A stretch of 64,000 nt of DNA, taken from assembly GCA_963664325.2 (NCBI GenBank), contig CAXXDQ010000008.1, positions 192,001 through 256,000 of the forward strand. Direction: 5' to 3'. Origin of the DNA: Desulfomonilia bacterium (GTDB lineage Bacteria; Desulfobacterota; Desulfomonilia; UBA1062). A model generated the notes under the pieces. That model saw only the letters and a program-made list of their open reading frames with translations. It searched no databases and had not been told where the DNA came from. Made by a program: the position numbers and the translations under genes. Of the stretch, positions 17,915 to 45,501 are shown one piece after another. Numbering within the stretch: the stretch's first letter is position 1; every line of letters begins with the position of its first letter.

Positions 17915-19034
17915 ATGAAAGGCGGTTTCGGATTATATCTTATAGTTGTTTTCATCGCCGTTTTATCCGGTTGTGCCGGAAGTAAAGGTAATGATGGCGA
18001 TATACATTCTCCGTCAGACGCAGAAACGGACAAAGCACGACTAGCGGAAGTTACGGTGAACATTCCGGAATTTCCTTTCCATGAGAATGAGACGGTTGCG
18101 GTAGATAAGGATATTATAGAAAACGCTGGCACAGCAGTTTACCCATGAGGAAGGGGAGGGTAAAACGGATGCGGAATTCTTTCTCGGCTATCTTCCTTTA
18201 AAAACAGCCGACTTGCTCTGTTCCGGCAATATTAAACATTATGAAACCAGCAGGCTGCTCGGAAACCTTTATATCTCGGGATATTTCGGCGGAATCTGGC
18301 TGAGGGACGCCATGGGCGGGAATGCCGTGAACTCGCGATCATTTTTGAACGATATAATGCCGGGCGATTTGAAGGCCGCAGCCGTTTCGGGTGATAATTC
18401 CATGGTATTCAGCATACTTGTGACAATGGCCGGCTCGAAAGTTAAAAGATCGGATTCAAACGATTTAATTGCCCTTGCCGCATGCCGTCTTTCCATGCCT
18501 TCATTCCTGCTCATATACGGATACAACTGGGGTTACTTCGATTACATCCTCAAGAATCCGCCTGAAGGCGCCGGCGGCATCGAACAGCCATGCAACTGCA
18601 GCAGGATGCTTGACTGCAGTGTTCCCGGGCTTGCTATCGAAACCCTTGATAAATACAAAAGTTCACGTGATATTCTGGAGCATCCTGAAAATGCCAAAGG
18701 CCTTTCGGTGCTGAGATGGTATGAGATGAAGGCGCTGAGCGGTATATGGGCAGAAGGGGCTGTCAGCACAGGATCCGGTGTATGGAAAAATATAATGAAC
18801 GAGAATATGGATAAAGAAACATACCTGCTGCTGCTCGACCTTTCAGCCCGGTTCATGCTTGTCGCCGAGATGAGCATCTTGCCTGCAATGAAGGGTTATG
18901 CAGAAAGCGATACCGATGCGTGCCGGTGCGGACTTCTGCAGCAGGCGGCAATGATTGTATGGGCCGGCAGCTATTTCATGGGCCTGAGTTCTGATTCACC
19001 TGCCGGGATATTTCCCTCAATAAACAGATCGTGA
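17915..19034 (+). CDS. Hypothetical lipoprotein; +1 frameshift near 18140
   Basis: Lipobox LSGC; the downstream frame is open from 18141 (ACC CAT GAG GAA...) into the 18213 ORF; extra T in GTTT. Confidence 0.6.
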
Positions 19035-19948
19035 GAAAGATTATTAAGACGGCGGCGTATTTGATTCTGGCGGCAATAGTGCTGCTTGCTGCCGATATCG
19101 CCGTCTGCTTTGTCTATCCCGACGTGTCCGTCTTAAAAAAGGAAAATCCTAAAAAGACCTCATTCATGAAATACCGGGAAAAGCAGTGGGCGGAGAAAGG
19201 CCTTGACAAGAGTGTAACTCAGAAGTGGGCGAGCTTTAACAGGATATCCCCGTATATGGTAAAGGCGGTTATCATAGCTGAGGATGATAAATTCTGGCGC
19301 CATGAAGGCTTTGATTTTGTCGCGATGCAGAAGGCCATTGAAAAGGATATTAAAAAGAAAAAGTTCAAGGTCGGCGGCTCGACAATCAGCCAGCAGCTTG
19401 CAAAAAACCTTTATTTAACTCCTGATAAGAATCCAGTCCGCAAAATAAAGGAAGCCATCTACACATGGCGGCTTGAGAGGAATCTTTCGAAGAAGAGGAT
19501 AATGGAACTCTATCTGAATGTCGCAGAATGGGGTGATGCACTCTTCGGGATAGAGGCGGCGGCCAGAAGATATTACGGGAAATCTGCCATATCCCTTGAG
19601 CCGGCAGAAGCTGCCAGGCTTGCGACCGTGCTTACCAACCCCATAAGGTTCAATCCTGTAGGGAATTCAAAATATGTAAGGAGCCGATCGGCATTAATTT
19701 ACGGGATCATGGTACGCCGGGGTATTGTGATTGAAGAATATGTTGAGGTGATGAATGAACCTCAGGAAGAGTCTGAAAAAGAGATAGGTCAGGAACCCGA
19801 ACCTGATGGTTCTCCTGCCGATACATCAGGCCCTGATGTTCCTGACACGGTTGACAAGGAAATACCACCGGTCCCGGAAATGGAATCGCCCGCTGTTCAT
19901 GAAGATGGAGTCGGAAATGATAAGGAATTAAATAAAGGGCCATCTTGA
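19031..19948 (+). CDS. mtgA: Monofunctional peptidoglycan transglycosylase with acidic C-terminal tail
   Basis: AEDDKFWRHEGFD, GGSTISQQLAKNL, RKIKEA, ELYLNVAEWG. Confidence 0.92.
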   Translation: MRKIIKTAAYLILAAIVLLAADIAVCFVYPDVSVLKKENPKKTSFMKYREKQWAEKGLDKSVTQKWASFNRISPYMVKAVIIAEDDKFWRHEGFDFVAMQKAIEKDIKKKKFKVGGSTISQQLAKNLYLTPDKNPVRKIKEAIYTWRLERNLSKKRIMELYLNVAEWGDALFGIEAAARRYYGKSAISLEPAEAARLATVLTNPIRFNPVGNSKYVRSRSALIYGIMVRRGIVIEEYVEVMNEPQEESEKEIGQEPEPDGSPADTSGPDVPDTVDKEIPPVPEMESPAVHEDGVGNDKELNKGPS

Positions 19949-30395: not shown

Positions 30396-30926
30396 TCTCA
30401 GTTTGTTCCATTTGGAAAGCTCATACGAAAGATAAAAGAAGTACATGTGAATGGCGACAAGTGAACTCCGGAAAAGTTGCGTTTTTATAGAATGTACCTG
30501 TATCGATTTTCTTCGGGTATGGGTAAAGTGAAAAGTATGTGATTTAAGATTATTTCAAAGTAAATGAATCCATGGTATATGAGGTTTATAAATAAGCCTG
30601 TTATCTAAAATACTGGTATCCCGGGAGACATATAAATTCTCAGAGTATGTCCGGTCTGACCTTCAGCCTGCCCGATATTATTTGGATATAATAAAAGATA
30701 TTATAATCAACATATTGTGACTCTTTCCTCCGTTTTTTATAAGACAGGCATTTAACAATCTGTTATACTTTGATAAGCTGTAATCCCAAATATGGATGCT
30801 TGGCCGTTACTGGGAAAATGGCTTAAAATACCAACGTCTTGCAAAGGAGTATGATTACGGCTTCTTTAGCTGTATTTGAAAGTATATGAAGTGTACTCCG
30901 GTGTGGATTGGGTCAGGGAGATTGCA

Positions 30927-32549
30927 ATGCCAAAGTGTGTGGCGCTAGTTTCGCTCTTCAACTATGACAATTACGGCCTCAGGTTGTTGATGGCCAAGCT
31001 CGAGAGTAAAGACATACCGGTTACCTTCATTGCCTTCAAACGTCTGACTCAAAAGAGCACCAAAACACTGAAGAACGATCTTACCGAGGCATATGACTGC
31101 CAGAGTGAAGTCCAGGAGAATGAGTTTGAACTTCTTATGTCCGAACTGATGCAGCTCAAACCGGCATTGATCGGAATCAGCCTTCAATCCGCACATGTAC
31201 ATCTGGCCAAACGCATCACCGCTATGATCAAAGAAAAACTGGCAGTACCTGTAATATGGGGCGGGGCGCATCCCACTATCGATCCAGAGGGTTGCCTTGA
31301 GCATGCGGATATGGTGTGCCTGGGTGAAGGAATAGAGGCGCTCCCCGAACTTGCCGGGCGGATACTGAAAAATGAACCCTATAATGACACTGCCAATATC
31401 TGGCTTCGGAACGGAGAGGGGATCATCCGTAATCCGATGCGCGATCCGCTTGAAAATCTCGATGACATGCCATTGCCCGCATATGGTCAAAAAAACAAGA
31501 TATACATCGATGAAGGCAGGCTGCAGCAGGGAAACAGCATCGATTACATCGGATTCGGCCTGCTGGAGGATCCTTACCGCACCATTCACCAGACCATGAC
31601 CGCACTGGGGTGTCCCATGCAATGTTCTTTCTGCATCCACGGACTCAGGCTGGAAAAATACAGGCGCCGAAGCGTTGATAACGTTATCCGGGAGCTTAAA
31701 GAGGTCAAGCAGAATAATCCCTATCTGAAAATGATCTTTTTCTGGGACAATGTCTTCCATGTAGATAAAAAGTGGTGTCTGGAGTTTGCTGAGCGTTACA
31801 AAGCAGAGATTGACTTGCCGTTCTATGCCTATACGCATCCTCTTGCGGCCGACAGGGAGGTTTTTACCTCATTACGCAAAGCCGGATGGGTTTTTACCGT
31901 CATGGGTTTTCAGAGCGGGTGTGAGCAAACCCGCCGGGATGTCTACAACCGCCGCGAAACAAATGCCCAGATAATATCCTCCGCCCGAGAGCTTAACAGG
32001 TTGCGCGATATTCCATATCATGGAAAATCATATTTCAAGATATATTATGACGTGATTATAAACAATCCGCTTGAAGGTGAGGAGTCCTTTGCGGAAAGTC
32101 TGGAACTTATGCTGGCGCTTCCCAAGGGTTTCGTACTCAACGCCTTCCATCTCACATTCTTTCCAAACTATCTTATCACAAAGGATTTTTTGTCCCGCGG
32201 ACTCATCAGCGGTCAGGATATAGAAGGGGCTACTGATTCATCCAAGAGTCTGGATTGGATCGTAACCTTCAACAAGGACGTGCAGGATGGCCCCATGCAG
32301 CTTCATATGTATCATTATCTTCTCTTCTCACTTGCGCAGTTCAGGATATTCCCGAACTCTCTGATAAGGCTTATTGCAAGACGAAAATGGTTCTATAACC
32401 ATATGATGCGTCTATATCAGCTGTGCAGCATCGTCCGTCTGGTCGATCTTGCAATATGGCCGCAGAACTATCAATGGGCATGGGAAGTCCTGACTATTTT
32501 GCCGGTTTCTTTACGAATAAGGAGGCGCTGTCTTGTACGACTCTCATGA
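30927..32549 (+). CDS. Cobalamin-binding-domain radical SAM enzyme
   Basis: LIGISL, IWGGAHPT, GEG (B12 domain); GCPMQCSFC; RSVDNVIREL; MGFQSG; start at 30927 after GGGAG. Confidence 0.88.
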   Translation: MPKCVALVSLFNYDNYGLRLLMAKLESKDIPVTFIAFKRLTQKSTKTLKNDLTEAYDCQSEVQENEFELLMSELMQLKPALIGISLQSAHVHLAKRITAMIKEKLAVPVIWGGAHPTIDPEGCLEHADMVCLGEGIEALPELAGRILKNEPYNDTANIWLRNGEGIIRNPMRDPLENLDDMPLPAYGQKNKIYIDEGRLQQGNSIDYIGFGLLEDPYRTIHQTMTALGCPMQCSFCIHGLRLEKYRRRSVDNVIRELKEVKQNNPYLKMIFFWDNVFHVDKKWCLEFAERYKAEIDLPFYAYTHPLAADREVFTSLRKAGWVFTVMGFQSGCEQTRRDVYNRRETNAQIISSARELNRLRDIPYHGKSYFKIYYDVIINNPLEGEESFAESLELMLALPKGFVLNAFHLTFFPNYLITKDFLSRGLISGQDIEGATDSSKSLDWIVTFNKDVQDGPMQLHMYHYLLFSLAQFRIFPNSLIRLIARRKWFYNHMMRLYQLCSIVRLVDLAIWPQNYQWAWEVLTILPVSLRIRRRCLVRLS

Positions 32550-33660
32550 AAACATTCTTAAAGCGAACATTCCCCCGGGTAAAGCAGAAACAGGGCCTTC
32601 CTGTTCCGACGGCTTTAAAGTAATCGAACAGCGTCAATTCGGTGCAATGAGGATGGAGGTTTTAAAAGGTGCCCTGTCGAACCCTACAGGCTCAAGACTG
32701 CCGGACATGAGCAGGGCCATTCAGACACTCAAGTTCATGCACTTCGTTTTAGCGGAAAAATGGTGTGTGCCCGGTACATCCGATCCCTCAACGATCATGG
32801 AAGGGCTTAAGCGCATGGGCCTTACTCTTGATGCTATCGGGACGGAATCTCTTGAGAACTATATTGACGGTGTAGGCTATTTCGAGCCGGAAGTCGATAC
32901 GGATGAACAACAACACCATGTCAACATATGGTTTAATAATATGCTGACGACAACCATTAGGCTGCGCCCGTTAATTCTACCGGCCGATGCTGAACGGCAT
33001 AAGGGAAACGCCCTTGCCATACTCGAGAATATCCGTGGCAGCCTGTGCCTGTCGGGACCCTTTGCGGGAAACCTCAGAAATCTTAAAGACGATCAGGCAA
33101 AATATCTCCTGAACTGCGTACTTAACGGGCAGGTGGTGGAACTAACCAGTCTGGCTACTATTTTTGCAGCAGCAAGGGCCTGGCGCGACAAACTCCTAAA
33201 TCCGGCTGACGAATCCCATGCAAGGGAGAGCTGCCACAGGACAAAACAGCTCCTTTCGGGATATTTTAAATCAAGCTGGTCTTTCTATCTGCTTCAATAT
33301 GTGTTTGCACTGGTTGCAATCGAGACTTACCGTCTGGGAGGGAAAGTCTGTATAGGACCAATCGATAACAGCCAGATGGATATGTATATAGCAGCCCTGG
33401 GGAACGATTTTATTCCCAGACCCGACATCAACCTGCACAGTATCCTTGATGATCCCGATCATCAGCCCCTCGTCCTGGCCAAAGGACCGATGAACAGTTC
33501 CCTGCTCGAATTCATTCGTATCGATGACCGTGTCGTTGACATTAAATCCCGGCCTGATCCGGGCACAATGGCCGTTTTATGTTTTCCTGTTCACGCCCGG
33601 GCTCTGGCCAATGCCATATATTGTCTGGACCGTATGGAGCACGCTCTGAAAAACAGCTGA
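32533..33660 (+). CDS. Hypothetical protein overlapping the radical SAM gene
   Basis: 375-aa ORF, GGAGG RBS before TTG, 17-nt overlap; no family recognised. Confidence 0.7.
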   Translation: MYDSHENILKANIPPGKAETGPSCSDGFKVIEQRQFGAMRMEVLKGALSNPTGSRLPDMSRAIQTLKFMHFVLAEKWCVPGTSDPSTIMEGLKRMGLTLDAIGTESLENYIDGVGYFEPEVDTDEQQHHVNIWFNNMLTTTIRLRPLILPADAERHKGNALAILENIRGSLCLSGPFAGNLRNLKDDQAKYLLNCVLNGQVVELTSLATIFAAARAWRDKLLNPADESHARESCHRTKQLLSGYFKSSWSFYLLQYVFALVAIETYRLGGKVCIGPIDNSQMDMYIAALGNDFIPRPDINLHSILDDPDHQPLVLAKGPMNSSLLEFIRIDDRVVDIKSRPDPGTMAVLCFPVHARALANAIYCLDRMEHALKNS

Positions 33661-33778: not shown

Positions 33779-35062
33779 TTAGAATACGGTAAAATAGCCT
33801 TTATTCGCCGTCTTTAAGTCGTTCCAGAGTGCGTCTGTCTTTGATTCTTCAGGGCCGAGAGGATGGATAAGCATGGCCTGCTTGATAAGGTTTTCATTTT
33901 TTGCAAGATGACCTTCTATTGTCAGGCGTTCATAGTTTTTGATTGTGCTGATAAGGCCGATGGTCGGTTTTGCGGCCTTGCCGAGCGGGATGGCGACCGG
34001 GCCTGATGAAGTCAGTTTTGCAGGGATTTCCATTATATAATCATCAGGGAAATCTTCGATCGTGCCGTTATTGCGCGTATTGATTATATGTGTACGGCCG
34101 TCGTTCGTGACGATGCTCCTGATAAGTTCCGTTGCCACTGTCGAATACATGAAGCCGCCGCGCTTTGACAGCTCTTCAGGCGGTTTGGTTCGTCCGGGCT
34201 GTGAATAGAGCACGAGCAGTTCTTCTTCTATTTTGAGTATCTGTTGCCCCCTGGTGCCTTTTGATGACCTGTCCTTAATCTGGCTTTTGAGCATCTGTGA
34301 GGTGTTGTAGTAATAACGCAGATAGGGGTTGGGCAGCATCTTTAGCATGGGGATGAAATTTTCGCCGTATTCAAGGTCAGGTATGTTCTTCATGTTCACT
34401 CGGATGTTTTCCATAACCTCTTTGGTCCTGTCCTTACCGGAAACGAAAATCCTGTCCACCCAGGCTAGGTGATTAAGGCCATAATAGCGCAGAAGCAGTT
34501 CGTTTTCCGGGCAATTCAGCGCTATGCACGCCTGCAATATAAATTCGACAGGACAATTGCACAGACCGACACATTTCTCATAGCCAAGGAAATTGACAAT
34601 AAACTCGGTCATCATGCCCGAGGGATTGGTAAAATTAATAATCCAGGCATTGTTCGAGAGTTTTCTGGCAAGGTCTGTATATTTTTCCATTACTGGCATT
34701 GCCCTGAGCCCGTTGGCCATACCCCCCATGCCGGTTGTTTCCTGACCCGGAAGCCCGTATTCAAGAGGGATCTTTTCGTCATTTATGCGTCCCTGCATGC
34801 AGCCTGCACGGAACTGGTTGATTACGAAGTCGGCGCCCGTAACCGCTTCTTCTGCATTGTATGTTGATGAAAAGCGCGCCGTGCTTCCCGCAGCCTTCAG
34901 AATCCTTGAGGAAAATTCAGAAAGGATCTCGAACTTGTGCGCGCTTTCGGGAATATCCAGAAGACATATTTCGGTTACATCTGCCACTTCGGTAATCTTG
35001 ATCAGGCCTTCAATAAGCTCCGGCGTATATGTGCTGCCGCCGCCGATTATACATACCTTCAT
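33779..35062 (-). CDS. GH4 glycoside hydrolase (6-phospho-beta-glucosidase type, NAD+/metal dependent)
   Basis: IIGGGSTYTP, GQETTGMGG, NFTNP, GLCN, GLNH, RGG..YS. Confidence 0.92.
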   Translation of the reverse strand: MKVCIIGGGSTYTPELIEGLIKITEVADVTEICLLDIPESAHKFEILSEFSSRILKAAGSTARFSSTYNAEEAVTGADFVINQFRAGCMQGRINDEKIPLEYGLPGQETTGMGGMANGLRAMPVMEKYTDLARKLSNNAWIINFTNPSGMMTEFIVNFLGYEKCVGLCNCPVEFILQACIALNCPENELLLRYYGLNHLAWVDRIFVSGKDRTKEVMENIRVNMKNIPDLEYGENFIPMLKMLPNPYLRYYYNTSQMLKSQIKDRSSKGTRGQQILKIEEELLVLYSQPGRTKPPEELSKRGGFMYSTVATELIRSIVTNDGRTHIINTRNNGTIEDFPDDYIMEIPAKLTSSGPVAIPLGKAAKPTIGLISTIKNYERLTIEGHLAKNENLIKQAMLIHPLGPEESKTDALWNDLKTANKGYFTVF

Positions 35063-36039
35063 GAGCTTTCCTTTTTAATGTATGTCTTTATCATGCGGTC
35101 GCTGATTTTCCTGGTCAGTATATGGCCGCTCTTTTCATATGCGTGGAACACGGCGCCCAGGACCGGGTCCCATTCTGGGACGACTATCTTAATTCTGTTT
35201 TTGTACTTCTGGTTAAGGCAAAGTTCGAGCATGTTCATAAAGGGCTGGTACTTCTGCTTGAAAACCGAACCGTCGAGCACAAGCTTGAAATTTTCGCCGG
35301 GCTTGAACAGGCCTCGGTGAAATTCATCAACTATGTGCAGGGTTTCCCTGACCAGCATCCATGTAATTTCGAGCGCCACACCGTCGCCCATGCGCGCCGC
35401 CTCGAAAAATATCTCGACCACCTTCTGTATGTTTTCCGGGAACAGAGGGACATTCTTTATGTCTTCAACCTCTTTTAAACAGAAAGCCCCGGTGATAAGC
35501 CTGCTGATAACGGTCGGACAGGCCCTGCCGTCCTCACCACGGATTGCGGCACGGCATACGAACATGGCGATGTTTACTGCGCCCAATGTGTCGCCGGTAT
35601 GGAATGAAAGCCCCCCGATGCGCTTCAGATCGCCTTTTGCATTCATTGCAAAATTGGTATTCGATGTGCCGTTGGTTACCAGCATGCCCACACCGTCGAT
35701 CGTACCGCTCTTGAGAGCTATATATCCGTCATTTTCAAAATCGAACGGGATGTTCGGAGTGACTTTCTTGTATACCTTGCGCAGCAGCTTGAAATCATCT
35801 GCGGTATCTGCGCCCGCGGCCCCGTAATAGATATATTTAATCTGCTCAAGTTTAATTCCAGCAGCATTCAGAACCTTGCCGATCCCTTCGGTAATTGCAG
35901 CCCCGGCGCCGTCTGGACCAAGGTTTTCATGGCTAGCGCCCACATCATAGACCGTAGCAACGATATTGCCTTCAGTGTCGGCAAGGGCGTATTGAGTTTT
36001 CGTATTCCCGATGTCCACTCCGAGAAGATACTGTTTCAT
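35059..36039 (-). CDS. BadF/BadG/BcrA/BcrD-type sugar kinase (GlcNAc-kinase-like)
   Basis: LGVDIGNTKT, GAAGAD, END, GTSNTN, GG..GD. Confidence 0.85.
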   Translation of the reverse strand: MKQYLLGVDIGNTKTQYALADTEGNIVATVYDVGASHENLGPDGAGAAITEGIGKVLNAAGIKLEQIKYIYYGAAGADTADDFKLLRKVYKKVTPNIPFDFENDGYIALKSGTIDGVGMLVTNGTSNTNFAMNAKGDLKRIGGLSFHTGDTLGAVNIAMFVCRAAIRGEDGRACPTVISRLITGAFCLKEVEDIKNVPLFPENIQKVVEIFFEAARMGDGVALEITWMLVRETLHIVDEFHRGLFKPGENFKLVLDGSVFKQKYQPFMNMLELCLNQKYKNRIKIVVPEWDPVLGAVFHAYEKSGHILTRKISDRMIKTYIKKESS

Positions 36040-37056
36040 TTAATCTCCATCCTGAAGATTTATTGCCCGGCCTGTCTCTGATGATTTGTAGCCGGCATCA
36101 ACTATGTTCATGATGGTTGTGCCTTCTGAGAGTCCGGGGAAAGGCGTTTTGCGGTTTCTTATGCAATCGATGAAATGTGTCATCTGGGTCGTGTAAATAC
36201 TCTGATCGCAATGCTCCAGCCTCGGCGGAAGCTCGGGTTTGAATTCGCCGAAAAGGAAGCCGTTTCTGAACTTGAGCTCGGTGGGGAACAGGCTCGCATA
36301 ACCCTCGCTGCCGTAAAGCCTTGTACCGGCTTCAGGCCCGTCCATATGAGGCTGCCACCAGCCGCTTTCGATGATTGATGTCACGCCGTTATCCCAGGTG
36401 ATCATCAGTATGCCGGTATCATCCACGTCGTAGTCTCCAAGATAAGTCCCTATTTTTGCATAGACCTGAACAGGCTTCGGGTCACCGAGTATATAACGGA
36501 CAGTGTCGATTGCATGAACGCCCATGTCGGCCAGCGCTCCTCCGCCAGCCAGTTTTTTCTGGCTGAACCAGCCGGCAGGGCCCCAGTTGACATGGATGCC
36601 GTAGCCTTTTGTCTTGAATATTTTGCCGATTTTGCCTGACTGGACTATATCCTTTATGTAGTTGACCTCAAGGTCGAAGCGCCACATATGGCCTACCATG
36701 ACAAGCTTTTTTGTCTTCTTTGAAACCTTTACTACTTCTTCCGCTTCGATAGTGTTGATTGCCAGAGGCTTTTCTACAAACACATCCTTGCCGTTTTTCA
36801 GACATTCAAGCGTGAAGGGTGCATGGAACCTGTTCGGGGTGGCTATCACAACGGCGTCGATGACGCTGCTTTTTGCTATTTTCATGGCATCATCGGTGAT
36901 ATCCTTTATCCCGTAAGTACCGGCAAACGCCTTTGCATTATCAAGGGGCAGGGCGCAGACAGACGCAAGCTCGACACCGGCGATCGCTTTAAGCCCGCGT
37001 GCATGGTAATGTGAAATAAAACCCGCTCCGATAAAACCCACTTTTATTCTTTTCAT
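36040..37056 (-). CDS. Gfo/Idh/MocA NAD(P)-dependent dehydrogenase
   Basis: GFIGAGFI, IATPNRFH, VEKP, GGGALADMGVHAID. Confidence 0.92.
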   Translation of the reverse strand: MKRIKVGFIGAGFISHYHARGLKAIAGVELASVCALPLDNAKAFAGTYGIKDITDDAMKIAKSSVIDAVVIATPNRFHAPFTLECLKNGKDVFVEKPLAINTIEAEEVVKVSKKTKKLVMVGHMWRFDLEVNYIKDIVQSGKIGKIFKTKGYGIHVNWGPAGWFSQKKLAGGGALADMGVHAIDTVRYILGDPKPVQVYAKIGTYLGDYDVDDTGILMITWDNGVTSIIESGWWQPHMDGPEAGTRLYGSEGYASLFPTELKFRNGFLFGEFKPELPPRLEHCDQSIYTTQMTHFIDCIRNRKTPFPGLSEGTTIMNIVDAGYKSSETGRAINLQDGD

Positions 37057-37068
37057 ATCCGGCCTGCC

Positions 37069-38358
37069 TTAAGGTAGCGTTATGGCTGCATATTCATCCG
37101 CTGCCATCTGCACTTTATTTATTGCCGCTGCAATATCATCCATATCGGTCCCGGGTCCCATCAGTATCTTGTGATGGAAGGTAACGGCCGTCTCATTGAA
37201 AAGCTTTTCACAGACAGGAAGGCTGAATCTTGACGGATCTATGGCTTTCCAGTGCCTCTCGCTGATTTTATAGCGCCTCTTGGTATGAGGCCTGTAGAGC
37301 GTGCAGTCGTTGAGCGGCTGATAGCAGTCATCCACAACGCAGCCGAGTTCGCCCATCAGCGCCCAGCGGAATTTTTCCAGAGACAGGCCGTTAAATGCAT
37401 TCCTGTCATAGGTGAAGCCGAAATTGAAATAGGACTGCAGATCTATGCGGTCATCGCGCTTCTGGGGGACAATGCCGGGGATGTCTTTAAGCAGCGTGAT
37501 GAGATATTTATAGTTTTCATCGCGCCTTCTCGTCTGAGCCGGGAGCCTTTTAAGCTGGCATAAGAGGACTGCGGCCTGGAAATCGCTCAGGCGGTAGTTA
37601 CCCGATTGTATGAAGTCGCCCTCAAGCGTGTAGGTACCCGAACCCTTGTCGTCTATCGTGTGGGTCCCTTCGGGCCTTCTGCCGCAATTGCGCAGTGCAT
37701 CGAGCTTTGCCCAGAGCATGTCGTCATCTGTAGTCAGCGCACCGCCTTCGCCGGCCGTCATGACCTTGCTGAGCTGCATGCTGAAGCTGCCTATGTCTCC
37801 TATTGTTCCGGCTTTTTTGCCGCGCCAGACAGAACCGTGCTGATGCGCGCAGTCTTCGATAACTCTCAAACCGTGCTTTTTTGCTATCGCCATGATGGCG
37901 TCCATGTCAGCCATGCACCCGTAAAGATGAACCGGCATGATGGCCTTTGTGCGCTTGTTGATTGCAGCCTCGGCAGCTTTGGGGTTTATGCACCAAGAAT
38001 CGGGCTCCACATCGACCAGTATGGGGACTGCATTGACATCAAGGACAGCCGCGGCCGTTGCCTGCCAGGTCAGGCCGGGCACGATCACCTCGTCCCCGAA
38101 ACCGATATCGCATGCTTCCAGCGCCAGCTGCAGGGTAATGGTGCCGTTGGCTATAGCCAGTGCATACTTGCTGCCGTTGAACCGGGCAAATTCCTCGATG
38201 AAAGCCCTTTCCTTGGGGCCCATGTAGGACCAGACGCCGCTCTCAAGTACTTCGATAAGGCCTTTTTTTTCATCTTCGTCCCATACCGGCCAGTCCGGCC
38301 ATGGCTTCTTTTGAACATCCCGAACCGGAGCTCCTCCGTTGACTGCAAGTATACCCAT
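37069..38358 (-). CDS. DegT/DnrJ/EryC1/StrS PLP aminotransferase, BtrR/StsC/RifK-like
   Basis: WPDWP, VPGLTWQATAAAVLDVNA, VHLYG, EDCAHQHG, SFSMQLSKVMTAGEGG, IQSGNYRLSDFQAA, LYRPHTKRRY. Confidence 0.9.
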   Translation of the reverse strand: MGILAVNGGAPVRDVQKKPWPDWPVWDEDEKKGLIEVLESGVWSYMGPKERAFIEEFARFNGSKYALAIANGTITLQLALEACDIGFGDEVIVPGLTWQATAAAVLDVNAVPILVDVEPDSWCINPKAAEAAINKRTKAIMPVHLYGCMADMDAIMAIAKKHGLRVIEDCAHQHGSVWRGKKAGTIGDIGSFSMQLSKVMTAGEGGALTTDDDMLWAKLDALRNCGRRPEGTHTIDDKGSGTYTLEGDFIQSGNYRLSDFQAAVLLCQLKRLPAQTRRRDENYKYLITLLKDIPGIVPQKRDDRIDLQSYFNFGFTYDRNAFNGLSLEKFRWALMGELGCVVDDCYQPLNDCTLYRPHTKRRYKISERHWKAIDPSRFSLPVCEKLFNETAVTFHHKILMGPGTDMDDIAAAINKVQMAADEYAAITLP

Positions 38359-38534: not shown

Positions 38535-40262
38535 CTATTTGTTGTTTGCTTTTCCGAATAAGATCAACGCCTCATCACAAATCGTTTTTGCCGCGTCAGG
38601 TCCTAAAGAATTTTCCTCACCGTATGGAGCGTGGGTGTAACCGTATGTATATGGTTCAATTTCATTCCATTCGGTCTTGGGAATGAGATATCCCAGATGG
38701 TCGTTCCCGAGATTCATCATCATGTTTACCTTGCCCTGCATCATCGGACGCAACGGCGTTTCAACCGGGCTTGATATGTCCGGCAGCAGGACCTTGTTGA
38801 ACAAACCATCGCTTTTTTTCTTTTTACCGTTATAATCCCTGTTTTCAGGTACGCCTATCGGTCCGGTTGCAATTTCGGGATACAGCTCGCCAGGAATAGT
38901 AAGAAGCCAGAGGTCTCCTATCGTTATAAGGTCCATTTCAGTCCATGTCTTGCTTGACCCGTCATCGGCAGTGTGGCCTTCCCTTTTCATGATACCTACA
39001 TTTCTGGCCAGCAGGAATTTCTGATTTTGAAACCCTATGTCGAATCTTTCAGTTACCACATTTATGGCCGGGTCCGCATTGAGTTCCATGTTCCCGTACT
39101 TGACTTCATCTATGATGATATCCGCGACTGCGTTTCCAAGCGCCCACGCCTTTTCAAAATTTTCAGGGCTGTCTATTGTCGCTTCCTCTTGGGATTTCGA
39201 ACCGTAATACAGTGTCCCGTCATAAAGGACACCCGTGGTTATATCAATTTCCTCAAATTGATTTTTTTCCCTGTTGAAAAAAAGCTCCGGTTCATATTCA
39301 GGCACGGTTATAACACCGACGTTACCGGTCAGATAGACGGTGTTACCGCCAAGCCTCTCATGCAGGGCATCACGTAGATAGCCTACAAAATCGGCCGAGA
39401 TCATCTGGTTTATTCTCCATATTGTCTCCACATGGTTGTCCCAGTTCACGATACTCCCGATAACGCTCTTGCCGTCCTTTGTCTTGAAGACCGCAAACCT
39501 GATGCCGTTGTCCATTATGTACGGAGGGCGCAAACGCGTTACCCCAAGTTCATTTGGCTGCTGGAGCTGATCTATGCCGGCGGTGTCCTGATCACTTAAA
39601 ATATCGACCTTTGACGGGTCAGGCAAGTCGAGCCTGTCTTTGTCCATTACCTGGCCTATGTACATGTCTGCAGGCGCCAGATTTTTTGACGCCTCCCTTA
39701 CAGACTGAATTGCCGCAGCCCTGAGGATATTCGAGAATATATCCACAGAACTTTCCATTATCCTGAAATGCAGAATGTCGTTGAGCCAGTCACCGATGAA
39801 GGACCACATCCCGGAGTTGTCAGGTACCTGATGGTTGTGCACGGAATGGACCATCAGATTGTCAATACCCAGAGACTGCACTGCATTCCGGATATATTCT
39901 GTGTCTTCATACCTTAAGCTGAATGCATCCAAAGAAATGATCGCCAGACGTTTTTCCCCGTTATCTATCACAATTGCATTCGCATAAATCGAATCGTGAA
40001 TTCCTGAAACAGGACGGACAATAGAAAATCCGGCCATCCAATAGCCTTTTACATTGTCATTGACGGTCAGTATCGGAACCTGCCCGAAACCCGCCCTGAG
40101 ACCGGTGTAAGTGTCCTCAGATGAAGGGTAGGGGTTGTCGTTCGTTTTTGGCTGGTATTGAGTTTGAGGCTGGTCATCGCTGCCGGAACTGCTGCAGCCG
40201 GTGCCCGCCAACATGGCAAATGAAAGTAAAATAAGAAGCAGAAAATAATATGGTCTGATCAT
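38535..40262 (-). CDS. Lipoprotein, neutral/alkaline ceramidase-like metalloamidase
   Basis: Lipobox GTGC; GIHDSIYANAIVI, HSVHNHQVPD, NWDNHVE, ISADF, IPGELYPE, YGEENSLG. Confidence 0.7.
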   Translation of the reverse strand: MIRPYYFLLLILLSFAMLAGTGCSSSGSDDQPQTQYQPKTNDNPYPSSEDTYTGLRAGFGQVPILTVNDNVKGYWMAGFSIVRPVSGIHDSIYANAIVIDNGEKRLAIISLDAFSLRYEDTEYIRNAVQSLGIDNLMVHSVHNHQVPDNSGMWSFIGDWLNDILHFRIMESSVDIFSNILRAAAIQSVREASKNLAPADMYIGQVMDKDRLDLPDPSKVDILSDQDTAGIDQLQQPNELGVTRLRPPYIMDNGIRFAVFKTKDGKSVIGSIVNWDNHVETIWRINQMISADFVGYLRDALHERLGGNTVYLTGNVGVITVPEYEPELFFNREKNQFEEIDITTGVLYDGTLYYGSKSQEEATIDSPENFEKAWALGNAVADIIIDEVKYGNMELNADPAINVVTERFDIGFQNQKFLLARNVGIMKREGHTADDGSSKTWTEMDLITIGDLWLLTIPGELYPEIATGPIGVPENRDYNGKKKKSDGLFNKVLLPDISSPVETPLRPMMQGKVNMMMNLGNDHLGYLIPKTEWNEIEPYTYGYTHAPYGEENSLGPDAAKTICDEALILFGKANNK

Positions 40263-40302: not shown

Positions 40303-42000
40303 TTATAGTATCACTTGAATTTCAGCCCCTGCTGTTGCATCTTTTAAGACAATCCAGGTAATTTTACCGTCAACGTAATAACCGCACGGCAGGGCGGCAA
40401 GCTCCTCCATACTTGAAACTTTTGCAAACTCTATACCAGAACCGGACTGTACTATCTGCGGAACAGGTTCGCCATAAACCCTGAATAAAAGAGAACGTTT
40501 AGTTGGTGTTGATTTTAAAGTCAGTGAGTTTTTATTTTTTACATAAGAAATTAGCGAACCTTTTTCCATTTCCTCATAAAGGCCGAACTTTTTTTCACCT
40601 TTTTCCGGATATACGAGGATGGTCGTAAAATCTTTTGAAAGTGCGGTTCCATATCCAGTGGCATCATTTGTCACGTTCATGGGTATGATCGCCCCTTTTC
40701 GGATGAAGACGGGGAATTCCGAAAGAGGGAAGTTTATTTTTCTGATGCCTGCAGAGTATTCTTTTGATTCATCCCATAAATAAATCCAGGTTCCAAACGG
40801 GAAAACAACGGTTCTGTCGTTGCCGGTTTCATAGAAGGGAGCCACCAGGATATCATCCCCGAGAAGGTAGGTGTAAATACCGGCCTGGGGCCTCATCGTG
40901 GGTTTGTCCAGTTCGTATGAGTATGCGGCCTGGCTGTAGATGTAGGGGATGAGTTCATGATGGAGAAATACGTATTTTCTGTATATATCAAGGGTTTCAT
41001 CATCAAACATCCAGGGCCTGTGTTCGCCGTTTCCGCCGTTTTCCATAATCGGGCACAGGGCTCCGAGTTGCGCCCAGCGGATGAAAACATCCTTGTAATT
41101 GTTTCCGTCATACCTGAACCCGCCGATGTCCGATCCATAACTGACGAAATTAAACTGGGCCGAACTGAACATGTTGTTGAGAGCATGCTTAAGGCCGCCC
41201 CAGTCATTGTCGTTGTCGCCGACCCATCCTGCGAAGTTGATGTCCCGGCTTGTATACACGAGAGGAAGTCCTATTTTCAGGACCTGGTCATCGACAGGCC
41301 GGGCCATGATCACCCTGTCTTTGCCAAGCCTGGCCCGCGTGTAATCGAAGAAATCACGATAGCACTGGTCACGGTATTCGGCCCATGTGATATATTTGCC
41401 TCCGAAACCTATGGCCGGCAGCAACAGCATCACAAATGGGTCAGTCCCGTCGACCTTCCAGCAGTCGATGCCCATATCCAGTATATTGTCCATCTGACCG
41501 TGCCACCAATTGAGGGCATCGGGATTTGTATAATCGAGAAGGGCGCCTTTGCCGCCCCACCAGGGAACGGTTTTTCCGCTGCTTAAAAAGTAGCCGTTAT
41601 CCTTGCCTTCCTGAAAATTGGAGGCCGTGTCGTTCACAATGCTTGTAGCCCACATGATTACTCTTATGCCCATGCTGTGGAAGAGCTGAACGTAATCCCT
41701 GAGGTCGGGATAAAGGGCCGGATCGGGTATGAATGTATTTGAATCCGTAGCCCAGGGGCGGTCGATAATGGTCGCCCCGACAGGGATGCCGTGGTCAAGG
41801 AAGCCGTTGATATTATTCAGTGTTGATTCCTGTGTCCCGCTGTTTTCCCACACCCAGTGAGTATGCACCCAGACCGGCCAGGCCGGCGGTTCGAGGCTCG
41901 GGTCTTTTTTGTGATCGCAGTTAGAAAACCCTGAAAGTGAGAGGAATACAAAAAATGTTAAAACAGCCGTCACCAGTCTGGTTGTGTTTCTGCTTTTCAT
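40303..42000 (-). CDS. Exported GH31 alpha-glycosidase
   Basis: Signal peptide; IDRPW, DYTNP.A..WW, WKVDGTD nucleophile, WVGDND, GSDIGGF, RWAQLGA. Confidence 0.88.
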   Translation of the reverse strand: MKSRNTTRLVTAVLTFFVFLSLSGFSNCDHKKDPSLEPPAWPVWVHTHWVWENSGTQESTLNNINGFLDHGIPVGATIIDRPWATDSNTFIPDPALYPDLRDYVQLFHSMGIRVIMWATSIVNDTASNFQEGKDNGYFLSSGKTVPWWGGKGALLDYTNPDALNWWHGQMDNILDMGIDCWKVDGTDPFVMLLLPAIGFGGKYITWAEYRDQCYRDFFDYTRARLGKDRVIMARPVDDQVLKIGLPLVYTSRDINFAGWVGDNDNDWGGLKHALNNMFSSAQFNFVSYGSDIGGFRYDGNNYKDVFIRWAQLGALCPIMENGGNGEHRPWMFDDETLDIYRKYVFLHHELIPYIYSQAAYSYELDKPTMRPQAGIYTYLLGDDILVAPFYETGNDRTVVFPFGTWIYLWDESKEYSAGIRKINFPLSEFPVFIRKGAIIPMNVTNDATGYGTALSKDFTTILVYPEKGEKKFGLYEEMEKGSLISYVKNKNSLTLKSTPTKRSLLFRVYGEPVPQIVQSGSGIEFAKVSSMEELAALPCGYYVDGKITWIVLKDATAGAEIQVIL

Positions 42001-42132: not shown

Positions 42133-42582
42133 TTATGCCTTCGGAAGAGGAATTATATGATAAGTGCATGTGGATTCCGCTACGGTTTTTCCTGCTTCGT
42201 CAACAGCATTCATATCCAGTATCCAGTCGCCTTTCCCCCTTTCGATAATGGGTGCGATCATTTCGTCCGCCTTTTCCTTTGTTAAATTGAGCTCGCAATG
42301 GATGTCCGTCGATGCAGGTTTGAGAAAACGGATGCCCATCGCCTTGTTTATGGGAATGAAACTTTCCACGCCGTAAGAGGCGAGAAACAGGGCCGCGCCT
42401 GCGACTTCCATGAGCATGAAGTATGTGCCGGCATACACGATTCCCACATGGTTCATGTGCAGGGGGGTTACAGGAACAGTCAAGCGGACATGGCCTTGTT
42501 CAAAGATATCGACTTTAAGGCCGCTGAGCTTGACCCAGGGAATAGTCTCTGTCAGGGCTGCCTTCAGTTCATCATTATTCAT
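42133..42582 (-). CDS. PaaI/hot-dog-fold thioesterase
   Basis: NHVGIVYAG..F..ME..G, IRFLKPA; start at 42582 after AGGAG. Confidence 0.82.
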   Translation of the reverse strand: MNNDELKAALTETIPWVKLSGLKVDIFEQGHVRLTVPVTPLHMNHVGIVYAGTYFMLMEVAGAALFLASYGVESFIPINKAMGIRFLKPASTDIHCELNLTKEKADEMIAPIIERGKGDWILDMNAVDEAGKTVAESTCTYHIIPLPKA

Positions 42583-42690
42583 TTTTAATCTCCTTGATAT
42601 TATTCCATCATGCGTTATTGACATATTATTGTTTCCAATTAATTTAACAATAGCTATAATTTGATAATTCTAACTATGAGGTGGGGAGTT

Positions 42691-44259
42691 ATGAGACAAC
42701 AAAGAAATATTATTTTTGCAGTTATGATCTTGTCCCTGGTTTTTCTTTCCGGATGTTCGAGTTCGGGTGGCGGAGACGATTCACCTGCATCTGCTGAAGC
42801 AATGACAACTGAAGGAACTTTCCTTGCGGGTGCCGCTATAAAGGTGCTTGTCCCTAAGGACAATCCCGATTGGTATCAGGAAGTCTGCCTCGGCGGGTTT
42901 GGAATACTGGGTGTGAGAAATTGGGGCAAACTTATTATTGCACGGGCAAAGGGTGTACACGATGCACCGTATGCCAGGGCCATGGTGGTGGAACAGGGCG
43001 GCAGCAAGATAGCCTTTCTGGTGATTGACGCGGCCATGATAAGCAATAACGTGATTCGTGATATAACCGATGGGGCAGCTGCAAGGACTGATATCCCTTC
43101 GAAGAACATCCTCGTTGCAGTAACCCATTCACATTCGTCTCTCGACCTGCTGGGTTATATGGGAGGCGTATCTCCGGAATACAGGAAGTTCCTGGTCGAC
43201 GCTTCGATCCAGACGGTGGTGGACGCAAACGATGACAAGACCCCTTCCAGGCTGCTGGTTTCACAGACCCAGTACCAGCCATCGGTCATAAGGAAAGAAA
43301 ACGGCGAGAATGCAAAGAAAAACGGTGCAGACCTGAAATGGGTCTACAACCGCAGGGGCTGGACTACGCTAAACGAAGAGGATGCGGACAAGGAAAGGTC
43401 AGAAGGTTTCAAGCCGAACTTTACGCATCCGGATGTGGATTTTACGATCAACGTTCTTGAGGCTGTCGACATTGAAACAGGCCAGCCGAAGGGCGTGATG
43501 ATAAACTATGCCTGCCATCCTGTCATCGTGACCGACGATTCGAGCGATATTTCCAGGGATTTCTGTGGCTACCTTGTCGATTACGTTCAGAAACGGATCC
43601 ATGCCCCGGCAATATTCATTCAGGGAACCCAGGGCGATGTAAACCCGGGGGACTGGGAAGATTTCGACGCCAATAAGGAAAACTGCTACGGTTTTGCAAG
43701 GCAGTTAGGCGAAGATGTTGCGAAACAGGCCCTTCAGGCCATGACTGAGGAGCAGGTTCCAATAGGAAACGGGATTCATTTTGAAAGGAGTTCTGTACCT
43801 GTTTCGATCGACAACCCTCTGTTCCTTCTCCTTCTTTACATTCAGCGTTCGTTGATAGACATGTCATTCACTGGCAAAAACCAGGCCGAGGCCCTTGTAA
43901 CTTACATCAGGCTCGGAAAGGAACTGCAAATCGCGGCGTATCCCGGCGAAGCGGTTACACACATGGGTCTTGGCATAATGGAAGGGGACCATGTGGGAAA
44001 GGACGGCTCTCCCATAAAGCCGATTGAAGGGGCCAAACAGGTCATGAAGGCACCTTTTAAAATGGTAACCGCCCTGACCGGTGACGCTCTGCTTTATCTT
44101 GTGCCATCCGCCGAATGGGAAAATTCCCCGGACCCGATGCCCGGAGTATTTGGCACCCCTTACGAGGAGCAGATGAGCATGTCGTTAAACGGCGTATTCG
44201 CAGATGACCTCCGCAATACCGTCAACAGTATGATAAAGGCGGATACAGGAATACAGTAG
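42691..44259 (+). CDS. Lipoprotein, neutral/alkaline ceramidase-like metalloamidase
   Basis: Lipobox LSGC; GVHDAPYARA, VTHSHS, NYACHP, ISRDF, QGTQGDVNP, YPGE, PYEE. Confidence 0.78.
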   Translation: MRQQRNIIFAVMILSLVFLSGCSSSGGGDDSPASAEAMTTEGTFLAGAAIKVLVPKDNPDWYQEVCLGGFGILGVRNWGKLIIARAKGVHDAPYARAMVVEQGGSKIAFLVIDAAMISNNVIRDITDGAAARTDIPSKNILVAVTHSHSSLDLLGYMGGVSPEYRKFLVDASIQTVVDANDDKTPSRLLVSQTQYQPSVIRKENGENAKKNGADLKWVYNRRGWTTLNEEDADKERSEGFKPNFTHPDVDFTINVLEAVDIETGQPKGVMINYACHPVIVTDDSSDISRDFCGYLVDYVQKRIHAPAIFIQGTQGDVNPGDWEDFDANKENCYGFARQLGEDVAKQALQAMTEEQVPIGNGIHFERSSVPVSIDNPLFLLLLYIQRSLIDMSFTGKNQAEALVTYIRLGKELQIAAYPGEAVTHMGLGIMEGDHVGKDGSPIKPIEGAKQVMKAPFKMVTALTGDALLYLVPSAEWENSPDPMPGVFGTPYEEQMSMSLNGVFADDLRNTVNSMIKADTGIQ

Positions 44260-44913: not shown

Positions 44914-45501
44914 TTATCTTTGGGATTTGCCCTGGCGGCTGAAATCGCTCAATTCGGAAGCAAGCCTGTCAATCTTGCTGCCGTAGGCAGGGTCTTTGGC
45001 CCATTTCCCCGAAAGCTGGAATACATATACGGCACTCCCTTTTTTGACATTGTTAAACCTCGGATCGACAATTTTGTTCTTAGGGGGATCGGTTGTGGCG
45101 TATGCCTTGAGATGCTGTATGTGAGCCCTGACGCCGATGCGCATGTCCTCGAAGGATTCTCCCGTGGTCTTTGAATTGAAAACGCCGAGCCCGCAAAAAT
45201 TATTCTGTTCCGGCAGGGCGGTTCCGCCGAATGAAAGGAAACCTGTCTCAATGCACATCTGTGCAAAAGCCACATCCTGATTGATGTTTTCCGCGCGGGC
45301 CTCTTCCAGGTAGATAAGCGCGATCTCATAGGCCAGATTCCTGTCGACACGGCTGTTTTTCATAATGAGGAATTGTGACATGTCATCAGCCTGCGCCGTG
45401 CCCGGGCCTTCTATCCTGTGCGTGGCGTGTGAACAGGCAGCGAGAATGGTAAAACAGACAACAAGCATGAAATTCAATGGATTGAAATTTTGATTTTTCA
45501 T
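44914..45501 (-). CDS. Glucosaminidase-domain (GH73-like) lipoprotein
   Basis: LAAC; AFAQMCIETG, QNNFCGLG, GVRAHIQHLKAYA, WAKDPAYG. Confidence 0.85.
   Translation of the reverse strand: MKNQNFNPLNFMLVVCFTILAACSHATHRIEGPGTAQADDMSQFLIMKNSRVDRNLAYEIALIYLEEARAENINQDVAFAQMCIETGFLSFGGTALPEQNNFCGLGVFNSKTTGESFEDMRIGVRAHIQHLKAYATTDPPKNKIVDPRFNNVKKGSAVYVFQLSGKWAKDPAYGSKIDRLASELSDFSRQGKSQR

Follow-up and report, generated by a model that had tools for sequence, protein, structure and literature searches.

A conserved cassette of aminotransferase, dehydrogenase, kinase and family 4 glycosidase genes, tentatively assigned to the catabolism of an amino-sugar glycoside

The DNA analyzed in this study, referred to throughout as the window, is a stretch of 64,000 nucleotides of contig CAXXDQ010000008.1 from a Desulfomonilia bacterium, and the subject of the analysis is a set of four adjacent genes on its minus strand which encode an aminotransferase (AT), a dehydrogenase (DH), a kinase (KIN) and a glycoside hydrolase of family 4 (GH4). 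We favor, with a confidence that stops somewhat short of even, the reading that together these genes serve to break down, within the cytoplasm, an amino-sugar (hexosamine) beta-glycoside which the cell has imported. The genes, which were taken from the list of open reading frames (ORFs) and assigned by Pfam, and the signals upstream of them are as follows.

37069 to 38358, minus strand: AT, DegT-family aminotransferase dependent on pyridoxal phosphate, 429 amino acids (aa)
36040 to 37056, minus strand: DH, Gfo/Idh/MocA NAD(P) oxidoreductase, 338 aa
35059 to 36039, minus strand: KIN, BadF/BcrAD-type (ASKHA) sugar kinase, 326 aa
33779 to 35062, minus strand: GH4, NAD-dependent family 4 glycosidase similar to BglT, 427 aa
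38514 to 38484, minus strand: terminator-like hairpin with a T-run and a 13-pair stem in which 7 pairs are G-C
38437 to 38382, minus strand: promoter-like hexamer pairs 5' of AT, matching the consensus at 9 to 10 of 12 positions

The ORF list confirmed the arrangement given in an earlier, sequence-only reading of this DNA, with all four genes co-directional and intergenic gaps of 12 nt between AT and DH, 0 nt between DH and KIN and -4 nt between KIN and GH4. The terminator which that reading had placed upstream as an insulator of the unit was also recovered, as the hairpin lies 20 nt past the stop of the upstream gene and separates the lipoprotein genes from the four-gene unit. The hexamer scan returned 16 promoter-like sites in the region against 14.4 expected, which is the chance level, so that only the hairpin carries weight. 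No signal peptide was found in the AT, DH, KIN or GH4 proteins, and a cytoplasmic location was assigned to AT. Among the 44 ORFs of the window, Pfam detected neither a 2-deoxy-scyllo-inosose (DOI) synthase nor a component of a phosphotransferase system (PTS), and the sole glycosyltransferase-type match was a peptidoglycan transglycosylase (19031-19948) 14 kb away, in agreement with the earlier statement that none of the three lies nearby. Pfam also showed no phosphatase within the cassette, and neither a YdjC deacetylase nor the PTS proteins ChbBCA encoded in the window.

The AT protein matched the Pfam family PF01041 (DegT_DnrJ_EryC1) with an E-value of 1e-94, and its best solved relatives were the L-glutamine:2-deoxy-scyllo-inosose aminotransferases 5w70 (331 bits), 5w71 (296 bits) and 2c7t (296 bits), followed by the 3-amino-5-hydroxybenzoic acid synthase (213 bits), the nucleotide-sugar aminotransferases (at most 192 bits) and NtdA (98 bits). 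The similarity to BtrR-type enzymes proposed from the letters alone is thus borne out at 296 to 331 bits, and the motifs quoted for it can be recognized when AT is aligned by HMMER with 5w70 and 2c7t; the SMQLSKV lysine motif of AT is also aligned with these solved enzymes. The cut-off of no NCBIfam equivalog was reached by AT, and a Chloroflexota member of the family likewise found its best matches among the 2-DOI aminotransferases. The family is very large, with 7680 relatives among the 8000 candidates scored, and many of these are 61% to 65% identical and come from metagenome-assembled genomes (MAGs) labelled Planctomycetes, Phycisphaerales or Sedimentisphaerales. In the phylogenetic tree, 39 members of the AT family formed a single clade (support of 100 in the approximate likelihood ratio test, SH-aLRT) apart from the seven other DegT paralogues of the window's own genome. 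Within this clade the window AT was placed in a subclade of enzymes linked to a family 2 glycoside hydrolase (GH2) (SH-aLRT 98), and the sister subclade (SH-aLRT 99) was made up of the enzymes from Chloroflexota whose genes are linked to those of kinase and GH4. A grouping of AT with the enzymes of nucleotide-linked sugars, which had been named beforehand as the outcome that would speak against the proposal, was therefore not seen in either the scores or the tree. The aminotransferase appears from its sequence to be closer to cyclitol than to nucleotide-sugar aminotransferases, and the resemblance to BtrR-type enzymes is a likeness only and no evidence for a cyclitol substrate. In one genome (G002), five paralogues of the AT family were observed, 38% to 61% identical to the window AT, indicating that the family has diversified within one degrader.

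The DH protein is the conserved partner of AT. It carries the N- and C-terminal GFO_IDH_MocA domains PF01408, PF22725 and PF02894, and its best NCBIfam model was IolG with 165 bits, under the equivalog cut-off of 355 bits. The percentage of identity was 23% in comparison with the true IolG of the genome (466 bits), 47% to 50% in comparison with the dehydrogenases of the Chloroflexota clusters, and 51% to 58% in comparison with the dehydrogenases adjoining close AT orthologues. Further matches under the thresholds were to UDP-N-acetylglucosamine (UDP-GlcNAc) 3-dehydrogenase (140 bits) and levoglucosan 3-dehydrogenase (109 bits), as well as to the C3-oxidizing DgpA.

For KIN, which begins with GVDIGNTKT, Pfam assigned PF01869 (BcrAD_BadFG, E-value of 3.6e-29) and reported no aminoglycoside phosphotransferase (APH)-type family. 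The best solved relatives were remote, namely the N-acetylmuramic acid/GlcNAc kinase 8zo3 (E-value of 3e-13) and the hexokinase 2e2n, and a weak match to NagK_SO3507 was also obtained. The GH4 protein contains PF02056 (Glyco_hydro_4) and PF11975 (Glyco_hydro_4C) and can be aligned over its full length with the 6-phospho-beta-glucosidase BglT of Thermotoga maritima (1up4, 387 bits), including the N-terminal nucleotide-binding glycine motif IIGGGSTYTPEL. Its scores were 387, 311 and 310 bits against 6-phospho-beta-glucosidases in comparison to 128 to 153 bits against 6-phospho-alpha-glucosidases and at most 57 bits against non-phospho alpha-glycosidases, and by these scores the protein groups with the phospho-beta branch and not with the alpha-glycosidase branches.

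The closest public relatives are two MAGs labelled uncultured Bacteriovoracaceae, in which AT is 86% to 88% identical. The gene order in the first (L001) is GH31, CER, CER, AT, DH, KIN, GH4, where CER denotes ceramidase-like proteins, and the second (L002) shows the same order up to AT, where the contig ends. We also collected 80 genome loci with AT relatives, mostly from Chloroflexota and about 40% identical, and clustered the neighboring ORFs and named the clusters by Pfam. The numbers of AT loci with each type of neighbor are as follows.

BadF-type kinase: 37 of 80 loci
GH4: 31 of 80 loci
Orthologous dehydrogenase, 47% to 50% identical to the window DH: 31 of 80 loci
Ceramidase-like protein: 25 of 80 loci
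YdjC deacetylase: 19 of 80 loci
Symporter of the glycoside-pentoside-hexuronide (GPH) family: 17 of 80 loci
PIG-L deacetylase: 14 of 80 loci
LacI regulator: 13 of 80 loci
Parts of a sugar importer of the ATP-binding cassette (ABC) type: 13 to 15 of 80 loci

When only the 47 loci spanning 12 kb or more are counted, 42 have one or more of the kinase, GH4 and dehydrogenase genes, 27 have two or three of them, 11 have all three and 5 have none, and a sugar importer was present in 31. The minimal operon in Chloroflexota (L016) consists of LacI, ABC importer, DH, GH4, KIN and AT. Among 31 metagenome contigs of at least 9 kb that carry AT, DH, GH4 and KIN occurred 15 times each, YdjC 12 times, the GPH symporter 11 times and PIG-L 7 times. 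The linkage of the four genes, put forward with the original proposal as a check on it, is thus conserved.

A second phylum provided orthologues which are closer to the window AT, as enzymes 60% to 62% identical were found in 6 of 167 genomes (59% to 64% for close AT orthologues overall). In all five of these genomes that could be seen with wide flanks the gene order was GH2, AT, DH, and the sixth match lay at a contig end. The GH2 protein of these loci carries the Ig domain of exo-beta-D-glucosaminidases and has no signal peptide, consistent with a cytoplasmic enzyme, the DH of the GH2-AT-DH loci is 51% to 54% identical to the window DH, and a sodium-solute symporter was nearby in two of the five. 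Among the metagenome contigs, L102 holds GH2, AT and a symporter, L107 holds AT, YdjC, DH and a GH123-like gene, and L105 holds an ABC importer, two class-III aminotransferases, AT and DH, an arrangement which suggests a substrate with several amino groups. The two class-III genes of L105 (5348-7976) lie directly upstream of AT-DH, one of them similar to glutamate-1-semialdehyde aminomutase and the other to acetylornithine aminotransferase. The context of the closest AT orthologues points to glucosamine, and the two types of loci, GH2-AT-DH and KIN/GH4-AT-DH, can be seen as two alternative glycoside-splitting modules which are joined to the same AT-DH pair.

This context bears directly on whether the genes build a metabolite or break one down. 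A dehydrogenase with a DegT aminotransferase, with or without a kinase, forms the core of the known kanosamine and inosamine routes, and 2-deoxy-scyllo-inosose aminotransferases sit in aminoglycoside biosynthetic clusters together with DOI synthase. Synthesis of a kanosamine- or inosamine-type metabolite, which the sequence-only reading had offered as its second option and for which the BtrR-like sequence of AT would speak, is very improbable in our judgment, as no cyclase, phosphatase, glycosyltransferase or exporter lies nearby in the window, the only gene of the dehydroquinate (DHQ) synthase family in the genome is on another contig, the relatives are found in LacI-controlled operons among importers, glycosidases and deacetylases, and the GH4 hydrolase would be left without a role. 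The 2-deoxy-scyllo-inosose aminotransferases (5w70, 5w71, 2c7t) share the lysine motif with AT and likewise act on a substrate that is not nucleotide-linked; the key difference is that AT is found in catabolic operons and that its family is a widespread clade in uncultured degraders. Similar to the cassette, the NtdC/NtdA (KabC/KabA) and RifL/RifK systems pair a Gfo/Idh/MocA dehydrogenase with a DegT aminotransferase by way of a keto-sugar intermediate, while they differ in being biosynthetic, in having a dedicated phosphatase and in acting at C3, whereas deamination is proposed for the cassette, and NtdA is distant from AT. The combination that marks a kanosamine-type (NtdABC/KabABC) system, a haloacid dehalogenase (HAD) phosphatase with an NtdA-type aminotransferase, was not found in the cassette.

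The same resemblance of AT to aminoglycoside-pathway aminotransferases, along with the presence of a kinase, could be taken to mean that the cassette inactivates or consumes antibiotics of the aminoglycoside type. We give this explanation hardly any credence, since KIN belongs to the BadF type of sugar kinases with no APH-type family by Pfam, and since members of the AT family abound in Chloroflexota and Planctomycetes-labelled MAGs and lie in nutrient-uptake operons, which fits an abundant substrate.

If the genes are catabolic, the position of the amino group has to be considered. AT and DH might act at C3 of a 3-amino sugar, such as kanosamine or 2,3-diamino-2,3-dideoxyglucose from lipid A or glycans, with the logic of NtdC/NtdA or GnnA/GnnB reversed and with a sugar that is not nucleotide-linked. 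The matches of DH to UDP-GlcNAc 3-dehydrogenase, levoglucosan 3-dehydrogenase and DgpA and the several types of amidases in the clusters are in line with this, and an equatorial amine between two hydroxyls resembles scyllo-inosamine. On the other hand, all of these DH matches are far under their cut-offs, NtdA is distant with its 98 bits, and the neighboring genes for YdjC, PIG-L and a GH2 enzyme similar to exo-glucosaminidases suggest ordinary 2-amino sugars, so that a 3-amino sugar seems unlikely and an attack on the amine at C2 rather than at C3 is favored.

To see how the four genes are distributed, a sample of 301 genomes from the window's phylum was searched with thresholds on the E-value of 1e-80 for AT, 1e-70 for GH4, 1e-60 for DH and 1e-20 for KIN. 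The results showed that each of the four genes was present in the identical 4 of the 301 genomes and in no others, these being the window's genome and three genomes from two other genera. In the three other carriers the genes are spread over several small contigs and are partly adjacent, as KIN-AT, GH4..KIN-AT and Gfo/Idh/MocA-KIN-GH4. Such a shared phyletic profile is the pattern that a functional unit spread by transfer would be expected to give. A separate search with AT at an E-value of at most 1e-140 returned no match in the 301 genomes of the phylum of G001, a result which is uninformative as just five candidates were scored per genome.

The catabolic reading fits the conserved context, the linkage and the shared phyletic profile. 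The first option of the sequence-only reading, in which an amino-glycoside is phosphorylated and cleaved and then deaminated, is in this respect supported by the context conserved in several phyla and by the profile, and the suggestion of detoxification that came with it found no support. The most likely substrate is a disaccharide or oligosaccharide that contains glucosamine and derives from cell-wall debris such as chitin or chitosan.

The genome of the window is 4.3 Mb in size and 95.6% complete, and several of its features are relevant to this reading. No match to PTS EIIC was found genome-wide, and in a genome without PTS a phospho-glycosidase needs a kinase; the BadF-type KIN gene overlaps the GH4 gene and is thus a candidate source of the phosphorylated glycoside. 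At this level of completeness the NagB family PF01182 was absent, no NagA was over its cut-off and no canonical GlmS was detected, and the sole GlmS-like gene, an open frame of about 1150 aa (C3:~321000-325000), is divergent and scored 199 bits against a cut-off of 418 bits. Two other amino-sugar loci were identified. The first (L100, C4:811000-830000) encodes a PfkB kinase, a sugar isomerase (SIS) domain protein, a class II ketose-bisphosphate aldolase, a Gfo/Idh/MocA gene, LacI, YdjC, a DegT paralogue that is nucleotide-sugar-like by NCBIfam, an alanine-racemase-fold protein, two GPH importers and a creatininase-fold hydrolase. The second (L101, C3:925000-944000) encodes PIG-L, a long GPH transporter, a cytoplasmic ceramidase-like protein, a SIS protein and an HAD phosphatase, and the SIS proteins of both loci are deaminase-like. 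Adjoining the L101 operon is a protein with a domain similar to the formylglycine-generating enzyme.

About 65 kb from the cassette and on the same contig is a canonical iol operon (L182, C8:294000-300200) with an IolB-like gene, IolD (926 bits), a tartrate-dehydrogenase-like gene, IolE (408 bits) and the true IolG, and the operon is followed by a type II glyceraldehyde-3-phosphate dehydrogenase-like gene and then a Pgk-like gene. The presence of these genes raises the question of whether AT-DH deaminates an inosamine of the scyllo-inosamine type, or handles the cyclitol moiety of a glycoside containing inosamine or inositol, so that scyllo-inosose or myo-inositol is fed into the iol pathway. 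In addition to the proximity of the operon, inosose aminotransferases are the best solved relatives of AT, IolG is the best NCBIfam match of DH, and the related clusters repeatedly include PIG-L deacetylases, whose substrates include GlcNAc-inositol compounds. Even so, no iol gene was found among the AT neighbors annotated by Pfam and NCBIfam, where hexosamine genes recur, the identity between DH and the true IolG is just 23%, and scyllo-inosose would pass straight to IolE, so that a conserved DH would not be needed. We thus consider a cyclitol substrate quite unlikely.

A number of observations weigh against the assignment to hexosamine glycosides. The closest characterized relatives of AT act on cyclitols, and the genome carries a full iol operon. 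The comparison loci are mostly from Chloroflexota and are not independent, and their phylogenetic clumping means that the counts given above overstate independence. The orthology of two of the four genes is uncertain, since KIN is only 26% and GH4 only 36% identical to the Chloroflexota counterparts, and the phyletic profile rests on three genera with thresholds that were set after the scores were seen. In the window itself importer, regulator, YdjC and PIG-L are all absent beside the cassette, and in two metagenome contigs (L102 and L106) AT has no adjacent Gfo/Idh/MocA gene. The PF01182 family was present in all five of the other AT-bearing genomes searched, and the window's genome has SIS deaminase-like genes; a transaminase route is thus not needed for growth on glucosamine, and the AT-DH pair adds to the classical deaminase and is not simply its replacement, for which reason the idea of AT-DH as a general replacement of NagB was rejected. 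Finally, many Chloroflexota clusters also hold an alpha-galactosidase-like GH4 and a galactokinase-like gene, as well as an epimerase and a nucleotidyltransferase in some cases, which hints that the substrate is galacto-configured or mixed, at least in the Chloroflexota clade.

Two of these points can be described further. The galacto-type genes were located in the Chloroflexota loci L056 (6583-7920), L031 (968-2065), L068 (6200-6919) and L034 (785-1765), as alpha-galactosidase-like GH4, galactokinase-like GHMP kinase, sugar-1-phosphate nucleotidyltransferase and NAD epimerase. Beside the close AT orthologues of L102 (4153-5214) and L106 (6760-7821) a divergent gene encodes an aldo-keto reductase with a twin-arginine translocation (Tat)-type signal peptide; this protein was considered as a stand-in for DH and, in view of its signal peptide, was not counted as support.

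On the reading we favor, that of hexosamine glycoside catabolism, the cassette may operate in four steps, the detailed chemistry of which is proposed from the protein families and their context with low confidence. In the first step KIN would phosphorylate the glycoside with ATP, replacing the PTS which the genome lacks. In the second step GH4, as its 387-bit likeness to BglT suggests, would cleave the 6-phospho-beta-glycoside by NAD-dependent oxidation-elimination, and the expected products are a hexosamine 6-phosphate and a free sugar. In the third step, suggested by the gene context, AT would transfer the ring amino group of the hexosamine to a 2-oxo acid, leaving a keto sugar, which in the fourth step would be reduced by DH to a neutral hexose. 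Outside the cell, a polymer or glycoconjugate is probably trimmed by the exported GH31 and ceramidase-fold amidases encoded upstream.

The nearest known logic is that of the chb system of E. coli and Klebsiella (PTS ChbBCA, ChbG, ChbF), in which a beta-linked disaccharide of amino sugars is split in its phosphorylated form by a cytoplasmic GH4 enzyme; the YdjC deacetylase ChbG is described as making monoacetylchitobiose-6-phosphate, which is then cleaved by the GH4 enzyme ChbF (PMC9402603). Similar to chb, YdjC accompanies GH4 in many of the clusters related to the cassette. The key differences are that chb relies on a PTS, while the window's genome has none and the adjacent BadF-type kinase would supply the phosphate, that YdjC is in the chb operon and not beside the window cassette, and that chb includes no aminotransferase or dehydrogenase. 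In comparison to the BglT of T. maritima (1up4/1up6/1up7), GH4 has kept the N-terminal GGGS nucleotide-binding motif over the full-length alignment; BglT is known for glucoside phosphates, while the context of the window GH4 suggests a hexosamine glycoside as its predicted specificity.

The cassette is real and conserved and is made of known enzyme families, and neither its arrangement nor the deamination step proposed for it was found described in the literature. Searches for a glucosamine route by transaminase and reductase returned no description; two related articles deal with a glucosamine kinase (PMC11300592) and with NagX (PMC9007349), and not with an AT-DH route. More broadly, and as a possibility about which we are rather doubtful, the data may reflect a widespread and undescribed hexosamine route, in which a cyclitol-type AT deaminates glucosamine or galactosamine (free or glycosidically bound), the resulting keto sugar is converted by DH into a neutral hexose and the nitrogen is saved as glutamate or alanine and not released as ammonia, with PTS-independent cleavage of beta-glucosaminides by kinase and GH4 and with ceramidase-fold N-deacylases as a new class.

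The genes upstream of the terminator are of interest for this last point. Those lying between the cassette and position 44259 are as follows.

38535 to 40262, minus strand: CER1, exported amidohydrolase-like protein of the neutral-ceramidase fold with a lipoprotein-type signal (weak Pfam match, fold match)
40303 to 42000, minus strand: GH31 glycosidase with a signal peptide (Pfam PF01055 and PF21365)
42133 to 42624, minus strand: DUF4442/YiiD_C thioesterase-like protein (Pfam), in the same position in L001 and L002
42661 to 44259, plus strand: CER2, second exported ceramidase-fold protein, a divergently oriented paralogue of CER1 (Pfam; LSGC lipobox)

The genes of GH31, CER1 and the thioesterase-like protein are on the same strand as the cassette and upstream of the terminator. 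For the Pfam family Ceramidase_alk, CER1 scored 27 bits, under the cut-off of 32.1, and CER2 scored 43.5 bits, over the cut-off. No sequence match of CER1 to any solved chain was found, and its AlphaFold model (predicted local distance difference test, pLDDT, of 76 and predicted template-modeling score, pTM, of 0.82) matched neutral ceramidases only (2zws, 2zxc and 4wgk), with E-values of 1.5e-21 to 2.9e-19, a template-modeling (TM) score of about 0.5 and 11% to 14% identity. Neutral ceramidase (2zws, 4wgk) is thus the sole significant fold match of CER1, at an identity of just 11% to 14%. Across 29 homologues of CER1 a His, His, Asp, His, Asp, Glu and Tyr are invariant, and the conserved His/His/His/Glu/Tyr set would be compatible with a putative metal amidase site. 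For GH31, only distant solved relatives were obtained (at most 112 bits), with no clear subfamily.

Homologues of the CER proteins in Chloroflexota and in the second locus of the window's genome have no signal peptide and are encoded inside sugar operons. The occurrence of such cytoplasmic homologues in sugar operons suggests that CER-type proteins act in the N-deacylation of amino-sugar glycosides rather than of ceramide. The exported ceramidase-fold amidases had also prompted the idea that the substrate is the lipid A backbone, used by a predator; the cytoplasmic CER homologues in sugar-import operons counter this, and we retain the idea solely as a distant possibility.

Much of the organic carbon and nitrogen of soils, sediments and digesters is present as amino sugars, which come from chitin, chitosan and the cell walls of microbes, and the textbook exit from this pool is glucosamine-6-phosphate deaminase. 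If the proposed route is true, genome-based models of nitrogen and carbon turnover would miss a transaminase-reductase route that operates in many uncultured degraders along with a GH4 step dependent on a kinase and with deacylases of the ceramidase fold, the AT family having been seen in Anaerolineae-type Chloroflexota, in Planctomycetes-labelled MAGs and in the window's relative of the Bacteriovoracaceae MAGs, and the label 'scyllo-inosose aminotransferase' would wrongly place thousands of genes in biosynthesis of the antibiotic type. Keto sugars and rare amino sugars are products for which the enzymes could be of use. What is new here is the coupling of AT-DH to kinase and GH4, the single phyletic profile of the four genes, the recurrent ceramidase-fold proteins and their setting in a genome without PTS.

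Two further features were noted on either side of the locus. Convergent with the GH4 gene, at 30876-33660 on the plus strand, is a pair made up of a B12-binding radical SAM protein (557 aa) and an overlapping ORF of 375 aa which has no family match; the radical SAM protein has distant matches to HpnJ and to lipid-type radical SAM models, all far under the cut-off. On the other side, at 44914-45501 on the minus strand, a glucosaminidase-domain protein of 195 aa matches the C-terminal part of the cyanobacterial hormogonium model TftA with 174 bits against a cut-off of 500.

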